Source: Lingula anatina (lineage: Eukaryota; Animalia; Brachiopoda). Taken from it: 64,000 nt of DNA. Each line of letters starts with the position of its first letter. Position 1 is the stretch's first letter. Position numbers and translations under genes: made by a program. Shown here piece after piece: positions 3,363-16,510 of this stretch. The stretch covers positions 12,834,001 through 12,898,000 of the forward strand of contig CM120646.1 in NCBI GenBank assembly GCA_051362555.1, in the 5' to 3' direction. A model generated the notes under the pieces. It saw only the letters and a list, made by a program, of their open reading frames with translations, did not search any database and was not told where the DNA came from.

Positions 3363-6300
3363 ATGGCTGCAGAAGCTACAGAACCAAAGACATTTCTCAA
3401 AGCCCTCCATGACAAGTATGGGGACAGTGACATACCTGAGGGCAATGACCTGGTGTTGGTTATGCATGTTCCCAATTCAGCACCAGGAATGACAGGTGAG
3501 AGAAAAAATATAAATAGGCTTTAAATTCAAAGTACAACGTTGGTGATGTGACACCTCCCCTTCATCACCCTATGCAATGGTGTTTTGACTTACTACCAAG
3601 GCCTTAATTATTAATTTTTCATTGGAGAAATTCCAGAGAAGCCTAGCTCAACCTGAATCAGGTATGGTAAAGGAGATCATTCAATTTCCAATATGTGAAG
3701 AAAACGATACATTTTGAAAATGTGTTGCTGTGTATTGAGGACATGATTTTAAACAAAATTGGCCATTGGAGTCATGGTAAATTAAATATTTTCTTATATT
3801 ATATATATAATTGTTTCAGACTCTGGCCAGTTGATTCTTCCCCGGCAACTGGCAATGAACTACCACAGTATAACACATGCAGGCAATGAGGAAGAGATTG
3901 CCAACCTTTGTGATAAGGTGACAGAGCTAGACATTGCCAACAATTGTATATCTGACTGGAAAGAGGTAATATCCCAGATAGCATGCATACGTTGGGCCAA
4001 CGTTGGCCCAACGTTGCCTTGGTTGACCATGCAACGTTGGCCCAACGTTGGGTTTCCATCTAAGTGCTCACTTTGGCCAACGGTTGGCTGAACGTCTTTT
4101 TAATGCCAACGCATTGCCAACGTATTCCCAACCAAACTGCGTTGGCCCTACATTGGGCCAACTAATAACCAACATTGGTCCAACAATTACCCAACCTGTA
4201 ACCAACAGTGCATTTACGTTGGTCCTACTAATAACCAACATCAGTCCAACGATTACCCAACCAAACTGCGTTGGCCCTACATTAGGCCAACTAATAACCA
4301 ACATTGGTCCAACAATTACCCAACCTGTAACCAACAGTGCAATTACGTTGGTTCTACTAATAACCAACGTCATCAGTCCAACAATTACCCAACCTCAAAC
4401 CAACAATGTATCCGCGTTGGCCCAATGGTAGGCCAACTGGTCACCAAGTTATCTGCAATTTGCACAACAAATTATGACCCAACCTAAAACCAGGGGCACA
4501 GTGATTTACAGTAACCCAACATTGAGCTAAAGGCAAAATCTTTTTTTTTTGGAATCACATAGGTAGTAGGGCACTGTAATTACACATCTGATGCACAGGC
4601 AGATCAATGTCCTGATGAAATATCTTGAGCATCTGAAATCTGCAAACTGCAAGATATGGCTGAAAAATTGGCAAGGTTTCTAAGGGATGAATCCTTCAGA
4701 GGACTTGATCTGCCTGTGATCATTTACACTACACCTGGAAAATTGTCAATTAATAATTGTAGTTGAAACAAAAAGATTAGTGATATATTTTGAACTGTTT
4801 AATTAATTCATAACATTACATAAAACAAATACATTACACCAACTAAATAATGATATGTGAATTGAAATATAATACAAAAAGACAACAAAGAAAATTTTTA
4901 TAAGATATTATAATATTAAATTTAAACATTAATAAGTGTGTCTTATATCAATTGTTACATGATTCACATCAAAAAAATTTTAACAGTCCTATGACTTTTC
5001 ACCTTATTCCTGGAGTCCAGGCATTTTTCTACTAGTAAAGTCTTTTTTTTGCCCCATTTCAATTTTTAAAAACATTTTCATTAAATTAAATTTTTAATTT
5101 AAATTTAAACCTGAAACCCTTGTTAATGTCAGGTAAGATGCTTTTCATAGGAACTTTCATAAGTTATATGTCAAGTCTATAAAATCACAGTCTCTTCCGT
5201 CAGGCAAAATCTCAGACATTGTCTCTTTAAAAATCAAATCAGTGGTCATATGAGTTCAATCTTGTGTTTTTTCTCTCTTTCCTGTCCTGCACCTGCATGA
5301 TCTTTGGCAAAGCACGATTAGTTAGGTGTATCTTCAACATCTTTTTCTGAACAGTCACAGAAGAGTGTGCTGCACCTACAAATTTAAATATTAAAAACAC
5401 TTGAAATATAATGCTAGAATTGGTATGGTACATAACATGACTGTACCTCTTCCCCCATATTTCATATACAAACTAGTACTAGTAGGTGTGTATTATATGA
5501 TAATCTCCCCACCTTTTCTAAGTTAGGCAAAAGCCAATATCTTAACTTTAAAAGTGTGTGTCTTGTGTGCAGTAATTTATAGTGATTTATTTAAATTAGT
5601 TCTTACGTGTACACTTGACCATGAATTCAGTTTTTAGACAACTGTAATGTACCACTAAATTCCACATCATTTAATCATTCCAACAACTCTATCACAGAAT
5701 TTACTGGCCAGGATTCATACAGACACATAAGAACAATTGGCTTCCAAGGACTTTTAAGGCTCTAAATCAAATCATTTTCAATGATTTTAACTAATGAGGG
5801 CAAGTTTTACATTAATACAGTTATATTAAAGTGTACATACCAAAGGAAAAAGGACTCATTTCATTTAAACTTTGTCTTTGTAACACATTGATGATGAAAA
5901 GTTGAAAATAAAAGTACAAGTAATGATGTATTAAAAGGTATTACCCCCATCTGTGAATTATTGTCTGTATTCATCTCAATAAACTACAAAGTTTTAAATA
6001 ATATTTTTACAAAGACAAAATGCTGAAATGCAAACCTTTTTCAAGCCTAATAGCATTTTCAAGTACTTTTCAAAGTTACATTTAAACTAGAGCCATTTAA
6101 ACTAGTCCAAAGTGCTGGACTAAATTTGAACACTTTTCAAGGCTGTATGGATCCTGGTGCATCAGTAAATAATGGGAAAATACACAATTAAAAAGTCACT
6201 TACCAGTACATGCTCACTTCTTATCCTGTCTCTTTATCTCTTCATTTTCTAATTTCCAAAAAGATGTCTTCTTTCTATATCCAGAAACCAATGCTTTCAG

Positions 6301-8802
6301 CTGTAATTCTTGCCTCTTCCTTAGAACATTTCTGACCTTCTGGCTTAGATTTTTGAATTGGCTCAACGGTCAGCGCGCTTAAGACTGTGCTATGTATAGT
6401 TGTTTGACCTGTTTGAGCAGGCAGTAGGCAAACTGTTTATATCAAACTGACAGTTAAGATAAACACCTGGCTTGTAATGAATCTGGTCCAGTGAAAGTTA
6501 CCAGTGTACTTTAATCAAAAGTCAATTGATGCTAACTATAAAGTTTAAAATTTATATATTGTGCAATTGTACATTATAATAAGATTTCAATCATTTGTCT
6601 GATTTCAATAACAATAATAATAATAGCAATAATAATAAATATGTTTCACAGCATTATTTAAAAATATAAATCTGTTCACTCAGTAATATTTTTATAGGTG
6701 AAGTCTATGTACTATATACTATATCCATTCAGAAAAAAAGACAAAATGAAAAATATATATATATGAGAGTATATAGCTTGGAAGACAAATAAAAGTAGAA
6801 CACTGTTTTTTAGCCCAAGGAATTTGACAAACTCTTAATAAAAAAAAAAATTTTAATCCTAAAAACTATATGTTACTGATCAATAGATAAGCACGTGATT
6901 CTCAGTTGTGAACAGAAACATTTTTATTATAACAGAAACATTATTCATTTCTATTGAGTTGTTAATTGGATACGTTGGCCCAACGTTAGGCCAACGTATG
7001 CAACAAATATGCACACGTTGGCCCAACGTTGGGCCAACGTGAGCATATTGCAGTTATGTTGTGCATATTATGATGTGGTTGGGCCAACGTTGGGCCAACG
7101 TATTACTACCAACGCCAACTATGTGCCAACAAACCAACGATTCCCCTACGTTGGCCCAACGTATGCTTGCTATCTGGGATTAAGAACAGTTTCCTCTATC
7201 AAACGTTATGCTGTGGGTGCTCTTAAAGCAAATAACTATAGTTGGTCACTAATTAAAGCAAAGGATAACTGATTATAAGTACATATATATAGGGTAGCTG
7301 TGAGTTTCTAAGGATTTTTTAGACATCTAGTTGAATCTTTTTCTGGACTTACAATGTCTGTCTTAGACAATTTTCACTGTGCTGTTTGCCATGTTAACCT
7401 CCGTATTTTATTCTTGAGCTCACCTATGAAATTTTTAAGTAGCTAAGACTAAGTTCTAAAGATAATAGATATTTACATGATTTATATCATTCAAGTAAGT
7501 TAAATAAATCAAACTACTTCATTCAGGTACAATCATATCAGTTGGTATCCTCCTAAATTGCATGAAATAATAAACTTGATATTTGTGCTATCACAGATGT
7601 GGAGATATGTTGGATTTGGTATGCTGAGTAATGATGTAGTTTAGTACTTGTTAATAATTCACCAAAACGTTACTCACTGGCCAAAGTTTATTGTAAATTG
7701 ATGACTTCTTTGAATTAAATTCTGTTTAATTTTGCAAAAAAAAAAAAAAAAATTATTTGGATCACTCAACAATGTTTTTTAAGAGTGGTGGCAGATTTAC
7801 CTCTCATGAGGCTGAATGCAGTTTAGTAAATTTGCCTAAAAGACAAATGTAAATTTTTATTTTCATTGACTAGGAATGATTTTTTTTTTTTCTGGTTCCA
7901 ATTCTGTAATGAGTCACGATCTATTTCATTCTTATTTGCCTCACAGATATTCAAGTTGATGTCAGTTATGCCAAAGATTGAAAGCATCAACTTTAGTTGT
8001 AACCCACTGATGGCAGAGATTGATGACGAGGTTGGCAACCAAAGTTTTCCAAATATAAAACGCCTCATCTTAAACAAGACTGGAGCAGCATGGAGGACTG
8101 TGGAAGTGTTACTAAAGATTATGCCATGGTAAGAAAAAAATGTATTATACTTCCGTATTTGCATTATCCAGTCTCCTAAACAGGGTCTTGTAGAAGTGAT
8201 GTAAATGATTAACCTTTTAGTTTTGATAAAAATTCATACTTTAGAAACATTTCACTGCACTATAGTTGGGTATAAAAGTCTAAAATTAATCTTGATATTT
8301 ACGAAAAAGAAGTGATGTTATACTTAAAATAAATATGTTTTTGTCTAGGCAACCTCAGAAAAATTTGTCAGAGCAAGAATTTTCTTTCAGCATTGAAGAA
8401 CTACACCTTAGCCTCAATGATTACACAGAGGTTGATCTCAAAGAAAAATATCCAAATGTCGTCAACCTCCACTTCAATGCCAACAAACTCAGGGACTGGG
8501 GAGAAATATGCAAACTGGGACGGGCCTTCCCAAATCTTTGTAATCTGGTGATGGCAGAGAGTGAGGTGTCTCTTTGTGATGACTCAGAAGTCGAGGAAAG
8601 TTTCCCAAAGGTAGTCAGTCTGAATGCCAATAAGATTGGCATCACCAGCTGGGAGGAGATAGACAGGCTGAACAGTTTCCCTGCGCTCACTGATGTTAGA
8701 CTGCAGGGAGTGCCTCTGCTGGAGGTGAGGAGGGGGTCTGTGTGATGTTTTGTGTGTGTTTGTGTGGCTAAATGCTTGTGTGTGTGTGTGACTTGATGCA
8801 TG

Positions 8803-8849
<47 letters not shown>

Positions 8850-10533
8850 CTTGATGCATGTTTGTGTATATGAGTGGATGCCTGTGTGTGTGGGCATGCA
8901 CACACTCATGTACACACACACAAACACGTCTAAGGTACATATTCAAGAGTTCATCATATTCATTGCACATGCCTAACAGAGTACAAGCTCCTAGACCACT
9001 GCATAGTTTTAAATGTTGATTTCTTTTATAATCTAGGATATGAAAGAAGAACAACGTAGGCAGTTCCTTATAGCCAGGCTGCCAAGGATCAATAGACTAA
9101 ATGGCAGTAAAATCCAGGAAGAAGAAAGAGATAAAGCAGAAAGAGCTTTTTTGAGACACTTCATGGATTCTGAGGAAAAACCAGAAAGGTATTCATTTAC
9201 TTACAAGATGTAAAGGCAAAGAATTGCTTTTGTTTGGTTCAAGTTGTTGTTGATTCGGGATTCTTTAGTGTCTCTTCCCAAACAAACAAACAAAAAAAAA
9301 TTGAGAAAACAAATCTCATGAATGTCAAATAAGATTCTTGAAAAGATGGGTATGATCTTCATAAATTACCCTAAGTCTTCATATTTTTCTTATCTTTTCC
9401 AGATATATGGAGTTAGAGAAGACCCATGGTCAGCTTGACCCACTTGCTGACGTCAACCTGGGACCACCCACCCACACGGTCACTGTCAGGGTCACATATG
9501 ACACGAAGGTGAGTACTAAAGGCCCATTATATTATGAGGGGGTGGGAGCAGCTTTTTCCCATTTTAATTTTTTTTTTTCGTCATTTGGAAAAGGCAAGCA
9601 TATAAATGCTTGGTCAATGCCATGAAAAGTGCTTTGGATGTGAAATTTAAAATGTGTGTCATTGTTCTGTATTTGTTTTGTTTGTTTTTGCTTTTTTTTT
9701 GTGTTGTTTAAAAAAAACAAAAACAAAACAAATCAAGTTAAATCTCTGTGTGGCTAAGACAAGCTCAAATAATGGCAGAGTTAGTTAGTCTTCTTTGTTC
9801 TGCTTATCCTGTCCTTAAGCTCTTGTTAGACAAAAACTGCACAATTGATTTCAATTAATTTTTTTAACAAAGTACGATGCATGTTAAATCATAGCTCCAA
9901 TATTGCTTTTTTTTCCCTCCTGCAGGTAAGAATGCTGAGCATATGCCTGGATAACTCCATTGTGGATTTAAAAAATCTGATTCGCAAGCTTTTTGAAATT
10001 CCAAAAGAATGTGGCATAGCATTATATTATAATAATGCAGAGGGCACTATTCCCTACAGAGCGAGGGAGATGGACCCCTCAAAATATGTGTACACATACC
10101 TCTATGAGGATGGATGTGACATTACTGTAGAGCCTCGTGAAAGGGGAGGAAGGAAGTGGATAGAACCTACCGTACATTTTGCAATAAAGAAAAGTTTGAC
10201 TGTAACACCACGCGATTAAATTAAACAATCAGAACACAGTATAAAATCCAAAGTTTGTTTTTACTTTTGCAGTTATTCAGTACTGATGATAATGAAACAC
10301 ATATTACAAACAGTAATGGAAAGTAATTATTTTTGTAGGTTAAGATGATGCAGCTAAACGTAAATCAAACAGTCCAAGAGCTCAAGGTGTTACTAAAGAA
10401 GACTTTTGACATTTCGGATAAAATAAAGTTGTTTGTGTTTGAGGATGGTATTCCTACTAATGAGTTAACTGAAATAAGAAGGTGCCTTTATATGTACTAC
10501 ATAGAAGATGGGATTGACTTGAGAATAATTTGA
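3363..10533 (+). CDS. TBCEL: Tubulin-specific chaperone cofactor E-like protein (LRR + C-terminal UBL), with two alternative last exons
   Basis: Coding exons 3363-3495, 3820-3965, 7947-8128, 8391-8724, 9037-9188 and 9403-9508, then 9926-10219 (isoform A, 448 aa) or 10339-10533 (isoform B, 415 aa). All introns are GT-AG and phases are consistent. Motifs: VTELDIANNCISDWKE, LILNKTG..W, IEELHLSLNDY, RQFLIARLPRINRLNGS...ERAFLR, HGQLDPLADVNL. No CAP-Gly domain, which fits TBCEL rather than TBCE. Confidence 0.93.
4594..4718. mobile_element. Small MITE nested in the CMC-like element
   Basis: Inverted termini CACAGGCAGATCAA(T)GTCCT / AGGACTTGATCTGCCTGTG. No clear TSD. Confidence 0.55.
5239..6408 (-). 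pseudogene. Degenerate spliced gene relic inside the transposon (possibly a BEN/DUF4806-like accessory ORF)
   Basis: Exon-like segments 6204-6408 (cag| ... CTG|gtaagt) and ~5239-5375 (tttgtag|). Frameshifted peptides SGYRKKTSFWKLE, VLG|AAH, CDCSEKDVEDT, DRKERK. Confidence 0.35.
5709..6156. mobile_element. Old hAT-like MITE nested in the CMC-like element
   Basis: Termini CAGGATTCATACAG / CTGTATGGATCCTG, with subterminal TTTTCAAG repeats. TSD not recognisable. Confidence 0.5.
8750..8925. repeat. (TG)n microsatellite region
   Basis: Visible TG/CA runs in a TBCEL intron. Confidence 0.9.
9926..10219 (+). CDS. TBCEL: TBCEL terminal exon 7a (UBL domain copy A plus 22-aa extension)
   Basis: Acceptor ttttttccctcctgcag, phase 0. 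Open frame VRMLSICLDNSIVDLKNLIRKLF...LYY...YLYEDGCDITVEPRERGG...PRD*. ATTAAA occurs twice at 10215-10225. Confidence 0.85.
   Translation, partial: VRMLSICLDNSIVDLKNLIRKLFEIPKECGIALYYNNAEGTIPYRAREMDPSKYVYTYLYEDGCDITVEPRERGGRKWIEPTVHFAIKKSLTVTPRD
10339..10533 (+). CDS. TBCEL: TBCEL terminal exon 7b (UBL domain copy B)
   Basis: Acceptor attatttttgtag, phase 0. Open frame VKMMQLNVNQTVQELKVLLKKTF...IKLFVFED...LYMYYIEDGIDLRII*. Downstream AATAAA at 11258, 11808 and 12228. Confidence 0.85.
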   Translation, partial: VKMMQLNVNQTVQELKVLLKKTFDISDKIKLFVFEDGIPTNELTEIRRCLYMYYIEDGIDLRII

Positions 10534-10625
10534 AAAACGTTTATGCAAATTAGTAGACTACCAAAATACTAGTGCTTCTTGACCAGGATTTTATTTGTGG
10601 ATCTGTGTTTGAATGCCTGCATGCA

Positions 10626-10669
<44 letters not shown>

Positions 10670-12490
10670 AATTATTATTTCAGGGATGCTAACTGATCTC
10701 CTGTTTATCTCTTCTGTGATAACTTTGGTTAAAAGTCAGATGATTAATCAGTGCAAAAAATTATTATGTGAAGAAAATGTGTTGTTTTATATGTAAAATT
10801 AAAAGAAAAGTTGGGTGATCACTGATTTTTGTAAAGTTAATGTGAGTCCAGATGTACCAATTTTATTGCTTACAAATGCAGGAAAACCAGTTGAACTATG
10901 TCATAAGTTATAATTATAGATTGAAGACCATGACATTTTAGTACTGCTAGACTATATGCACAGGTGGTGGTATTACAATATTTGGTGGCAGCGGTGGGAT
11001 TTGATGATGAAGTGTAGATTCAAAACTTTAGGAGACATAGAATTTGATAGGGGTAAAATAGGAAGACAGACACATGAAGTTAAGTTCATTAGTACTGTAA
11101 GAACAGCACACTGTATGCAACGATCTTTGTTTACTTGATAATTAGTGTCAACTTATGTGCAAATCATGTGAGCTATTTAAATGTAGACCTACGATTTAAC
11201 TTATCATCAAACCCATGTAAATATTTGTAAAGTTATCTTAACTTATAAGGAGTATGAAATAAATACACAATGTGTGAGGCAATTTTTGTTAAATAACACA
11301 GTATAGGATAACACCAAGTTCCTTTAAAAAACTACAAAAACTTTCCTTTTGCCATACTATATATTTCACAGCTAAGTTGTACAGTGTATGCCATGTCCCA
11401 AAAAAGGGAGGTCATTGTTGTGACCTTCATATGGTGCTGTGTTGTAGGCCAAGTTGGATTAATTAGGCAGAGGCATAATCTAAAGTAATTGTTATAATGA
11501 AGTATGGCATGCTGTGATTTATTGTTATTAAAAGGCTCTTTTATGCATGCACTTATGCATCTTTTTCACGTTTATATACATGTGTAGCATGAAAAGAACT
11601 TACGAAAAGCTTTTTGTACACTGAAAATGAAGGTTCTCTTGCGTTATAGCATCGGACCAGTTAGAAATTATTTGTATCCTTAATTTTAAGGAATAGGAGC
11701 ATGCTTAATGACTACATCCACAATACTTTTGATTAGCACATTTTATAGAATACCAAGTAAATATTGCCATTAACATATTTTAAGGACAATAACTATGTAA
11801 ATCTGTAAATAAAATGAAATTAATTTGATATGATTTGTATTTTGTGATTTTTATGAACAGACGCAATCTGAACATGTAGCCACCGTCGTAATCAAAACCA
11901 TTGTTACCGTGCATTTTTCACTGTAAATGCAAGTGCCTTAGCCTCAAATTTTCTGATGGGATTAATAGCATTTAATGGAGGTCAAGCTCAAAAAGCAGCT
12001 TAATTGAACCTTTTGCTCAATTTCCACGGTAACAATAGTGGTGGAGATTCTGCTGTAAAATGAAATGCAAAATTATATCAAAATTGGAAAAAGAAAAACA
12101 TTTTGTGCACTGTCGTTATTTTCTTTGTCTGTACTTTAAACAGCTTTGCATTTACAGCATAATCTCTATTAATATTGTTTTGTATTGTAAGAAAGATTGA
12201 GCCCCTTATATTCTATTTTGACCTGACAATAAATGCATTTTTTACGGGATAAAAGAATTTATTTTCAGTTTCTTTACTCAATTAATTCACAAGATTACAT
12301 TATAGCAAATCCTGGCATATAGCTGATCATAGCTTTAAATTCTTATACATCAGGCACAGACAGCTGTGCTGTGACTTATCCAAACTGATTACATATTCGT
12401 AATGTAATGTGTACAAGGATGTACCATCAAGTTATCATACAGCATCGGTCAACCTTGAACCAAAATCCTGGTTCCTTTTATGTAATGTTA

Positions 12491-13280
12491 GGTCAGCTGT
12501 GGAACCAGTATCTTTGGTACCTTACTGTCATGTTACCATACACCAACGGTCAGCTGTAAACCAGTATCTTTGGTGCCTTACTGTCATGTTACCATACATC
12601 ACAGGTCAGCTGTGATTCAGTATCTTTGGTGCCTTACTGTCATGTTACCATACATCACAGGTCAGCTGTAAACCAGTATCTTTGGTGCCTTACTGTCATG
12701 TTACCATACACCAACGGTCAGCTGTAAACCAGTATCTTTGGTGCCTTACTGTCATGTTACCATACACCAACGGTCAGCTGTGATTCAGTATCTTTGGTGC
12801 CTTATTGTCATGTTACCATACATCACAGGTCAGCTGTAAACCAGTATCTTTGGTGCCTTATTGTCATGTTACCATACATCACAGGTCAGCTGTAAACCAG
12901 TATCTTTGGTGCCTTATTGTCATGTTACCATACATCACAGGTCAGCTGTAAACTAAAACCTTTGGTGCCTTACTGCCATGTTACCATAAAGCATAACTTA
13001 GCTGTAAATCAGTATCTTTGGTGCCTTACTGTCATGTTACCATACATCACAGGTCAGCTGTAAACCAGTATCTTTGGTGCCTTACTGTCATGTTACCATA
13101 CATCACAGTACAGCTGTGAACCAGTATCTTTGGTGCCTTACTGTCATGTTACCATACATCATAGTACAGCTGTGAACCAGTTTCCTTGCTGCCTTAATTA
13201 CTGTCATGTTACCATACAGAATACGTCAGCTGTGAACCAGTATCTTGGGGTCTTCACAATCATGTTGCCACACAGCATAA
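12491..13280. repeat. 56-bp minisatellite, ~14 copies, in the 3' UTR of the AGA-like gene and overlapping its last codons
   Basis: Unit GGTCAGCTGTAAACCAGTATCTTTGGTGCCTTACTGTCATGTTACCATACATCACA, starting at 12491, 12548, 12604, 12660, 12716, 12772, 12828, 12884, 12940 and onward. Confidence 0.95.
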
Positions 13281-16200
13281 GCAAATCCATTATAAGATGA
13301 ACTTCCATTATGCCCTCCGGAGATTTTAACAGTGCTACCTGCTCCTATTTCACCCTGAAATGAAAATGGCATTCTCACTCAAATCCCATACCTTCCCCAA
13401 CATTTCTCATTTTCATTGTCCACACCTTGTCCTTCATGTACAATATTTGCCATCTGTTTACCTTCCTCTCTGTCAAACAGATCCAACATAGCTGAAAGGG
13501 GCATTTCCCAACCCTGCAACCAACTATCTATCTTTCTCTGGTCAAAAATGAAAGTCTGCTGTCAAGTTTATATGCAATTTGGGCACTGCAGAAAGTAACT
13601 GTTTGTGAAAGTTTTTTTTTTATTACATGACGTGTCGGATGCACATTTTCTAGGCATATGTTTTTATTTTGTCAATATGATACAGGCAGTCTTCAATTAC
13701 AAATTTCACAAAATCTATGATACTAACTTCCGTTTGACAAAAATCCTGTACAAAATCATGGCAATGCATAAATTGAAAAAAAAAAACTAAATCACGGCAA
13801 TTTAAGTTTCACCTGCATATTCATGGCTATGAGGCCTATTTCTAATGGTGGATCTTCCCCAAGTCTCTCTACCATCTCTGCTACAACACTGGAACAGCAT
13901 TCTGAGGGAGACAGTCCCTAAAAAATCCACACAGTCATACACTCGTTTCCAAGTAAAATGTTTTAGCATGACACAAAATGCAGCCTATCAATTACAAGAG
14001 ATAACTGACTTTTACTAAAGAAGAATGAAAACCATTTAACCTAATAATTAGAGCACTGTCATCATTATCGTCATTCTACATATTTGAAACCGAAAGACAA
14101 CACTACCAGTGATGAGTATAAGAGAATATAAATAAATTCACTCAGACTATATCTGTATTTAAGTTGGGGTGAAACTGTACCTGTTTCATGAGTTGTACAA
14201 CATGGAAGCTAGGGCAGAATCTCATGATCTTATCTCCATCCCCAGTGGCACAGGCAGCTCCTGCTTTATCATCTGAAATACAATGTATATTTAAAGGCAT
14301 ACAATGCACGTTTCACTACCATGAAACAACTGACTAATGACACTTTTTCAGTTCACAAGAGAAATCTCTGCATTGTTCCTGGAAAGCAGAACATTACTTG
14401 TATTTTTATGAAAGAAACTGCACCTCATCATGCCACTTGGTCAAACACATGATAGATCATTAACTTTGAATGAATACACAACCATAAATGTACATATCTT
14501 AGGTGATCTAATGCCCATTTACATGCACCTGCATAGAGCCCTGCTCCTGGTAAGGGACTGTCACCAACTCTTCCCACAGCCTTAAAAGGAGCACCACTAG
14601 ATGACACACCTTAGGGACATAGGAAAAGAGAACATGCTCTAATGTTAAATTTTGAAAGAGGGCAATATATGCCCTTAAAAGAGATAAAGATAGCTTTTAA
14701 CCCTAAATGATGTACTTGAAATAAAAAAAAAAGTCAATAAACAAGAACCCACTCAAGCCAAAACAAAATCAAAGTTTACTCACATCATCAGCATGTCACA
14801 TTCAAGCCGCTGAGATGTTCATTATAGCACTGTCGATGTTAGAATTTTGTCAATGTCATAACAACCATGATGCCAAAAACCACCACAATTAATATCATAG
14901 AAAATTAAAATAACACAGAAATACCACAACCATCAAAATGCCATAGCCACAATGTTACAACCATAGCATCATCTCAACCACCACAACCATTAAAATGCCA
15001 CAGCTACAACAATACCACAACTAAACCAATGCAAATCCTACCTACTGCAATCTGCCCATGCCTATCCAGAGCAATGACACCCAATGTATCATGTTTATCA
15101 AACAGGCTCTCATAGTGTACTCTATGAGAGAATTTCTAAAAATAAAATAATAAAAAAGAAAGTACAAAAATCAATAATAAAAAGGCATATTCAATACAGG
15201 AATTTGAAATTCCAAGTTGCTGAAAATCAATTTTATCAAGTTTACACCAAATATCTATCATAAGTGATAAAATGTGTAGTTTATATAAACGTGCACAATG
15301 CATATTTAATAAATAAATAATGCACTGTGTTACAGAAGTCTTGTATAGTTGTCATCAGCTGTGTATTGTGCAAGATACTATAAATATATTGTGCTAATGT
15401 GATTGAGATAAGCCACATATTTACTTCATACTCTTCCCTTCCCTGAGCTGTCAGTAGCTGATCATTAGTCTGAGTGGTGAAGCCACACTTCTTAGCAAAC
15501 TCGAGGGCACCCTGTCCCACTAGTAGGCTGTGTGGCGACCCCTGCATCACTCTCCGAGCCACTGAGATGGGGGTAGAGATCCTGAAATAAAGAAAAGTAT
15601 AATTTCTTAATTATGGTTATTAAAAGGGGTTAATTTTCTCTGCACAATGAAATGCCTCCATTCTCAACTTAATTTGTGCTTAACGTCTTTGCTTGTACAA
15701 ATGTCTTTTTAAAAGTTTAGGTACTACCAATGGCTCACTAGGCTGAATACTCCCTCTGCAACAGACAGTTCTTAGTAGTGGTCTCCTTCAGAAACTAAAG
15801 GCCATCAGTTGGGATGTCATAGCCACGAGCGAACTTTTCAATGTTACTTAAAAGTGGCATTTTCATTAGTGTTTAGGTACAGGTTTTCACTGTATCAATG
15901 TTTCTTTTTTTTCTAAAAAAAATATCAGAAATGCTTTAATAAAGTATGACATCATATGACATCCACGATAAAATAAAAATCTCATTAGGTACCCCTCGAG
16001 AGCAGCCACGCCCCCATACTGTAGTGAACTGCCCTCCATGAGAGCAGCATCCAGCTGTAGTGTTCCTGCAGCATTGGGCATACCTCCCTTCCCCACTAGG
16101 TACCGTCCATAGGCTGGGTCATCTTCCAGGACTGAAACAGGGGAAAAGGCAATTACATATATTAACACGTAATTGTGAACAGAAGATGACAGGCTAGCCT

Positions 16201-16510
16201 CACTATCTTAGGGTGTATTCCCAGAGCTGTTAGATCGATCTATCTCTGCAGGGAGTCTCACTAGATTAGTGTCAGATAATCCGGCTTAAATGTCCATCCT
16301 GCCTACTTCAAGCTGTAAGGGGGTAATTAACTTTCCTGCCCGCTCGGCTAACAGCTATTTAGCGAGAACCCCCAGGGAGTTAGGTCGATCTACAGTAGAT
16401 CGATCTAAACTCTGGGAATGGGGTCTTAGAAAATAGTGTCCTAACGGAAAGGAACAAATATAAAGAAACACATTGGGAAAGGACATGTTTTTGTGTAAGT
16501 GACAGATAAT

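Follow-up and report, generated by a model that had tools for sequence, protein, structure and literature searches.

A TBCEL gene of Lingula anatina is spliced to either of two homologous C-terminal ends

Tandem C-terminal exons and the TBCEL family

The replacement of one protein C-terminus by another through tandemly duplicated exons is a known class of event. According to the accessible parts of PMC8373072 and PMC9741552, 77 of 236 human tandem-exon substitution events are C-terminal, CAPZB being an example, and convergent recurrence in orthologous genes, across phyla, has been documented for this class, whose members are often tissue-specific (PMC9741552). The TBCEL gene of the brachiopod Lingula anatina resembles these tandem exon duplication-derived C-terminal substitutions (UHP events) in that homologous tandem 3' coding exons are attached to one core and are both expressed and conserved, and it is a real, new instance of the class. 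Unlike the catalogued human events, however, the Lingula swap replaces most of a folded ubiquitin-like (UBL) domain, strand beta1 being common to both forms, and the identity between the copies is about 25%. Neither TBCEL nor TBCE gave a match in the supplement of the human tandem-exon catalogue.

Members of the TBCEL/COEL-1/Mulet family have in common with the Lingula protein the order of LRR and UBL, the lack of a CAP-Gly domain and a match to the same profile. Most of the sampled members have a single UBL end, and the Lingula ends are unusually diverged. Homologues of TBCEL destabilise tubulin, a role known from work on cells and on the fly as well as on the worm; in the available sections of PMC3789837, which describe it for the worm, coel-1 is reported to be neuronal. 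The same sections report that coel-1 alleles deleting the UBL are taxol-hypersensitive, as is an LRR deletion, and that, superficially, worms with these UBL deletions resemble the wild type. In Drosophila the germline requires TBCEL, and the available text of PMC7055396 mentions three mRNA isoforms, with no alternative UBL. The paralogue TBCE carries, unlike TBCEL, a CAP-Gly domain; TBCE in TBC-DEG (PDB 9m1k, 9m1l, 9m1m and 9edt) is the best structural match to the Lingula protein, and its ubiquitin-like (Ubq) domain is the homologous module. In the accessible portions of PMC12881605 and PMC13155304, which contain no mention of TBCEL, this domain is described as anchoring on TBCD and contacting beta-tubulin. 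These partners would carry over to TBCEL by analogy only.

The window analysed here is a 64-kb stretch of L. anatina DNA. A first-pass annotation had identified the gene as TBCEL, and its near-identity to the RefSeq L. anatina TBCEL proteins, from which the models differ by 4-9 residues, bears this out (5-9 residues between the 448-aa 7a-form model and isoform X2, and 4-8 between the 415-aa 7b-form model and isoform X3). The LRR core is homologous to that of TBCE and TBCEL, and there is no N-terminal CAP-Gly domain, as judged from the lack of a Pfam CAP-Gly match and from the alignment with TBCE, which begins at TBCE residue 81. Six upstream exons on the + strand, all with GT-AG borders, can be followed by either terminal segment to give open proteins of 448 and 415 aa with one stop each. 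Coding exon 1 (3363-3495) holds the ATG of both forms and matches RefSeq X2 in translation; RefSeq X1 and X3 begin 6 codons before this ATG. In the gene model the LRR core is encoded by exons 2 (3820-3965), 3 (7947-8128) and 4 (8391-8724, 96% identical to XP_013411903.1), and RNA loose ends at the 3' end of exon 4 were spliced onto exon 5. Exon 5 (9037-9188), for which RNA depth and the junction 9188>9403 provide evidence, encodes the LRR cap and a helix. The shared exon 6 (9403-9508) encodes the hinge helix, a linker and UBL strand beta1, according to a family profile, a structural model and junction reads. Its phase-0 donor lies at 9508/9509, with GTGAGT directly after 9508, and the AGs of the two acceptors have their last base at 9925 and 10338. 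This arrangement, one donor and two phase-0 acceptors each leading into a stop-ended open frame, had already been noted in the first pass and is seen in the sequence. Terminal segment 7a (9926-10219, + strand; junction reads, profile, AlphaFold2 model and RefSeq X1/X2) encodes the UBL from beta2 to its end (about 71 aa), followed by a basic tail of about 26 aa and the stop TAA. Terminal segment 7b (10339-10533, + strand; junction reads, profile and RefSeq X3) encodes the UBL from beta2 to its end in 64 aa, is tail-less and stops at TGA.

Both C-termini are present in RefSeq, where L. anatina X1/X2 (XP_013411903.1 and others) and X3 (XP_013411909.1 and XP_013410835.1) represent the same gene with the same two ends; 7b is identical between RefSeq and the window, and 7a differs by one residue. 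These RefSeq isoforms are the product of automatic annotation only. In the open-access literature searched, there was no account of the Lingula TBCEL ends as homologous duplicates or of such TBCEL isoforms. The earlier remark that the arrangement had not been described thus holds for papers, but not for RefSeq, whose automatic annotation lists both isoforms. As this class of splicing is familiar and RefSeq contains both isoforms, the finding is of limited surprise. Two scaffolds of the L. anatina assembly in RefSeq, 302,722 and 635,262 bp long, carry near-identical TBCEL loci, each with X1-X3, possibly as a result of haplotype redundancy. Elsewhere in the window, a PRA1-family exon (1670-1972, - strand; Pfam PF03208, E 8e-16) lies head-to-head with TBCEL, and exons of an Asparaginase_2 (PF01112) family gene (15284-16207, - strand) lie tail-to-tail with it. 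A 56-bp tandem array of 13.4 copies with 90% matches occupies 12490-13246, and TBCEL intron 2 contains repeat arrays with a near-palindromic unit at 3989-4426 and about 6970-7165.

Splicing and polyadenylation of the two ends

Six of nine same-species raw-read RNA runs were used (X1, X2, X4, X7, X8 and X9; X3, X5 and X6 were left out). In a first mapping, four runs (X1, X4, X7 and X9) were aligned to positions 9030-10615 with a 90% likeness filter, 6-30% of each run being read. The junction 9508>9926, which leads to 7a, was found in 15 reads (6, 0, 9 and 0 in runs X1, X4, X7 and X9, respectively), and the junction 9508>10339, which leads to 7b, in 7 reads (5, 1, 0 and 1). The 7b junction accounted for 7 of the 22 junction reads and was found in three of the four runs. 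The first-pass annotation had proposed a search for these two junctions as a check, and had regarded the finding of a single one, combined with loss or disruption of the other exon in close relatives, as evidence against its reading; both junctions were present. A second mapping at 80% likeness revealed loose ends of exon 6 at the 7a acceptor (at least 9, 7 and 9 in runs X7, X8 and X2), and the RNA depth approximately doubled at the 7b acceptor (from 8.2 to 16.2 in run X8, and from 4.5 to 9.2 in run X9). The exon-6 donor is spliced to the proximal acceptor at 9926 or to the distal one at 10339, giving two mRNAs in which each terminal segment is joined to the same upstream exon 6. The RNA reads show that both ends are used in both Lingula lineages, the comparison lineage being that of runs X7-X9, whose reads are mostly 90-99% alike.

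The two ends had initially been described as mutually exclusive exons. In the strict sense, as defined in the accessible part of PMC3228551, such exons form an internal cluster with flanking exons, one member of which is present in each mature transcript, and 3'-terminal events are treated as alternative-acceptor or poly(A) substitutions instead (PMC8373072 and PMC3228551, in the parts available). The Lingula ends fall outside this strict definition, both because they are terminal and because 7b sequence lies inside long 7a transcripts. The 119-nt spacer between them (10220-10338, + strand) is, to judge from RNA depth, 3'UTR in long 7a transcripts and the end of an intron for 7b. Spacer depth never fell to zero in seven run mappings, and in the second mapping its means were 3.5-8.2 over 10245-10332. 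This unbroken coverage implies that many 7a transcripts hold 7b as 3'UTR, although it may partly derive from unspliced RNA, and it points to competition between 3' acceptors, probably combined with alternative polyadenylation, rather than to strictly mutually exclusive splicing. The earlier term therefore has to give way to a choice of acceptor and poly(A) site.

Candidate proximal poly(A) signals are found on the + strand between 10183 and 10225 (AATAAA at 10183, within the 7a frame, and ATTAAA at 10215 and 10220), and the depth of run X1 drops from 33 to 12 to 3 across 10143-10301, just past these motifs. This suggests a proximal poly(A) site near 10183-10225, where we infer that cleavage occurs. 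An exact poly(A) end was not called in the run mappings, and read-through was seen in all runs. The two acceptors would compete for the exon-6 donor, the proximal poly(A) site could end 7a transcripts ahead of 7b, and the choices of acceptor and poly(A) site may jointly set the ratio of 7a to 7b. A search for RNA pairing of the docking/selector type gave nothing convincing, the inverted repeats being short or of low complexity. The stretch at about 10790-10945 had been suspected to be a degenerate third copy. This candidate was rejected, as it lacked a profile match, its shuffle p-values were 0.13-0.94, and in the first mapping the exon-6 donor showed neither a third junction nor a loose end. 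Reads of runs X7 and X8 jump back from 10545 to 10507, which suggests that the 3'UTR of 7b contains a short tandem repeat derived from the end of this exon.

Homology, structure and constraint of the ends

The view that the two ends align as diverged tandem duplicates, put forward in the first pass, is upheld by BLASTP, shuffling and a family profile. 7a and 7b are identical at 17 of 68 positions (about 25%; BLASTP, E 1e-6), and the score of the pair was reached by none of 10,000 shuffles. The TBCEL C-termini of 115 non-Lingula proteins (out of 161 proteins) were used to build a profile. Searched against all six frames of the window, it matched exon 6 with 38.6 bits, 7b with 29.4 bits (iE 4e-8) and 7a with 20.6 bits (iE 2e-5). 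The best score elsewhere in the six frames was 2.7 bits, and there was no second exon-6-like copy near 7a or 7b. Two coding segments at the 3' end of the gene are thus homologous and arranged in tandem.

For the 7a form, an AlphaFold2 model based on 81 sequences had a mean pLDDT of 90.4 and the beta-grasp order of elements, namely strands at 341-348 and 351-358, a helix at 363-374, strands at 381-387 and 415-422, and then a low-confidence tail; the pLDDT per 10-residue block was 75-97 across the domain and below 50 in the tail. The best Foldseek matches of this model were TBCE chains, including the 89-residue 9m1k_E (target TM 0.75, rmsd 3.0). For the 7a form, profile and model therefore agree that the C-terminus contains a ubiquitin-like domain. 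In the 7b form this domain is recognised by the profile, and its fold is of low confidence, with a mean pLDDT of 49.9 in a single-sequence model. 7b is also collinear with the human TBCE UBL in 9m1k, which is weak by itself. Neither isoform matched the Pfam ubiquitin families at E<=1; the 7a form gave a weak match to PB1 only, and the 7b end had no Pfam match. The first-pass annotation had held that each terminal exon encodes the UBL domain, and it had named a 7b without UBL fold or profile match as an outcome that would speak against it, which is not what was found. Its claim stands from beta2 onward, where the profile matches both ends, but the splice junction falls at residues 351/352, and strand beta1 (341-348) hence comes from the shared exon 6. 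The comparison of predicted structures that it had proposed gave a confident fold for 7a, but only a low-confidence one for 7b.

With a profile of exon 7, 7a scored 27.8 and 7b 41.3 bits, against an in-sample family minimum of 37.4 and a median of 77.8. These scores place both ends with the most diverged members of the family, which would fit relaxed constraint too. 7b retains the QTV motif, of which QT is lost in 7a, and the conserved G that follows the helix has been lost from both ends, as has the D that follows DG. 7a adds a basic tail of 26 residues that is predicted to be disordered.

We consider it probable that one LRR core is spliced to either of two homologous ends, likely last-exon tandem duplicates, that these ends are predicted to complete the UBL domain, and that docking surface and tail differ between the two forms. 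Strand beta1 of exon 6 is predicted to pair with beta2-alpha-beta3-beta5 of either exon. By analogy with TBCE, the swap may adjust how the protein binds its partners or how strongly it destabilises tubulin, with no change to the LRR core; as the TBCE UBL docks on TBCD and beta-tubulin and worm UBL-less alleles are taxol-hypersensitive, it would likely alter docking or activity. Purifying selection probably keeps both copies, the amino-acid sequence of 7b being the faster to change.

Values of pN/pS were obtained from the differences listed for the comparison lineage (40 of 57 in the first mapping and 40 of 54 in the second). Among these listed differences, pN/pS was 0.08 for the core in exons 5-6, 0.27-0.36 for 7b and 0.11-0.40 for 7a. 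All 21 listed differences in 7b (11 N:10 S) gave a pN/pS of 0.27 (p=0.003 versus neutral), whereas the 15 fixed differences alone were borderline (p=0.054). The listed differences in 7a (6 N:7 S) gave 0.23 (p=0.01), and 0.27-0.40 (p=0.2) without three synonymous sites that also occur in runs X1/X2. The first-pass proposal that both exons are kept under selection is therefore supported by pN/pS values below 1, robustly for 7b when all sites are used and softly for 7a. Amino-acid change is faster in 7b than in 7a or the core: among the listed differences, the pN of 7b was 0.058, compared with 0.009 for 7a (p=0.009) and 0.010 for the core (p=0.012). Positive selection on 7b was considered but found no support (pN/pS 0.27-0.36; MK-type test p=0.36). 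No stops or frameshifts in 7a or 7b were among the differences listed for the diverged lineage, and one variant at the 7a stop (TAA to TAG) keeps the stop. With random substitution at this divergence a 64-codon frame was still open in 36-47% of trials, and an intact frame alone is therefore weak evidence. At least 19 lineage differences lie in 117 nt of 7b (10362-10478), versus at least 7 in the 119-nt spacer. The duplication is older than the split from the diverged Lingula lineage, which sets a lower bound on its age only, and the protein identity of 25% suggests that it is much older than that split.

As to why two ends are kept, tissue-partitioned isoforms are a tentative but reasonable explanation, in which one end, most plausibly the faster 7b, would act in the germline or in ciliated cells, with soma or neurons left to the other. 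A pN of 7b above that of 7a and the core would suit such a partition, as would the germline role in the fly (PMC7055396), the neuronal coel-1 of the worm (PMC3789837) and the frequent tissue-specificity of the class (PMC9741552), all as far as the accessible texts go. The 7a:7b junction ratios also varied by run (6:5 in X1, 9:0 in X7, 0:1 in X4 and 0:1 in X9), with Fisher p-values of 0.04 for X1 versus X7 and of 0.02 for X7 versus X4 and X9 together. However, these run differences are suggestive only, as the runs carry no tissue labels, the counts are tiny and the comparisons were picked post hoc. Moreover, the 90% likeness filter disfavours the more diverged 7b reads in runs X7 and X9, and run X1 uses both ends equally.

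Somewhat doubtful is the explanation that the ends are redundant duplicates under relaxed selection, that is, interchangeable stable domains kept only since each must fold. It would account for the long branches of both ends (2.4-2.6 changes per site), for the loss of family residues, for pN/pS values several-fold over that of the core, and for the superficially wild-type worms with UBL deletions (PMC3789837, in the sections available). Nevertheless, both ends were kept and expressed through divergence to 25% identity, their pN/pS is still below 1, and comparable swaps are seen among the RefSeq isoforms of two further phyla.

Comparable ends in other animals

A set of 304 proteins, 241 of which had the full hinge and UBL, gave 24 groups at >=90% identity over the 100 preceding residues. 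Same-species isoforms swap their end in three of these 24 groups (Lingula, Amphiura filiformis and Mytilus), a figure that is not a rate, since many of the other groups are cross-species and the 90% clustering may hide isoforms. Over hinge and UBL the identity between the two ends is 51% in Lingula. In Amphiura filiformis, the RefSeq isoforms X1/X4 (P0174/P0020) and X2 (P0217) share 326 identical residues and then have hinge and UBL ends with 40% identity; the break matches the position of the Lingula exon 5/6 junction. The RefSeq isoforms of Mytilus edulis, M. trossulus and M. galloprovincialis have 69-83% end identity among the more different pairs. The Amphiura and Mytilus isoforms are RefSeq predicted models. 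In the Mytilus proteins P0015 and P0162-P0169, shared cores are combined with several homologous hinge/UBL ends, which suggests either that the last two exons form a tandem array or that the gene itself is present in tandem copies, and M. galloprovincialis X3, which differs in the core too, may represent tandem gene copies. P0039 (561 aa) is a TBCEL with two tandem UBL domains in one chain, the repeats being sisters (100/93), and P0014 (Apostichopus japonicus, 595 aa) and P0057 have an additional LRR block beyond the hinge or UBL, suggestive of tandem TBCEL copies fused by annotation. Among 69 candidates, with 2 matches, no other brachiopod protein with the 7b C-terminal region was found, which is weak evidence.

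In a tree of 39 ends over 71 columns, the six Mytilus ends formed a 100/99 clade, 7a and 7b paired weakly in the best tree (47/69), and the Amphiura pair had no resolved placement. None of four constraints was rejected in AU tests. The breakpoints differ among Lingula, Amphiura and Mytilus, which favours independent duplications without proving them, and comparison of the sequences suggests that the C-terminal module has been duplicated recurrently across phyla. A single early-bilaterian duplication of this module, kept in these three and lost elsewhere, is unlikely in our view. The AU tests are compatible with it (7a with Amphiura X2, p 0.135; 7b with Amphiura X1, p 0.37; 7b with three Mytilus X1-type ends, p 0.07), and in pairwise comparison with 210 segments 7a and 7b rank 7 and 10 for one another rather than first. 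It is opposed by the swap points themselves, which lie at beta2 in Lingula, at the hinge (after residue 326) in Amphiura and at either point in Mytilus, by the Mytilus clade and the weak 7a-7b pairing, and by the lack of a second exon-6-like copy beside 7a and 7b. That one end is splicing noise into a decaying pseudo-exon, as low junction counts and the ease with which a 64-codon frame stays open by chance might suggest, is highly improbable and already largely refuted by the share of 7b among the junction reads, the use of both ends in both lineages, the N:S ratio of 7b below neutral and the presence of both ends in RefSeq models.

With independent duplications as the favoured reading, the TBCEL UBL could conceivably be a recurrent hot spot, duplicated independently in brachiopods, mussels and brittle stars to yield tissue-partitioned, swappable docking isoforms (a rapidly evolving germline form, for instance) whose partners among tubulin cofactors or in degradation would differ; this wider proposal is speculative and we would rather doubt it. 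If true, it would provide a natural experiment on the role of the TBCEL UBL. A gene of tubulin turnover joins the families with repeated tandem-exon C-terminal substitutions, and an identical LRR core with different UBLs in three phyla would offer ready-made domain swaps for finding the partners of the TBCEL UBL. Such swaps bear on how the TBCEL UBL commits tubulin to destruction.
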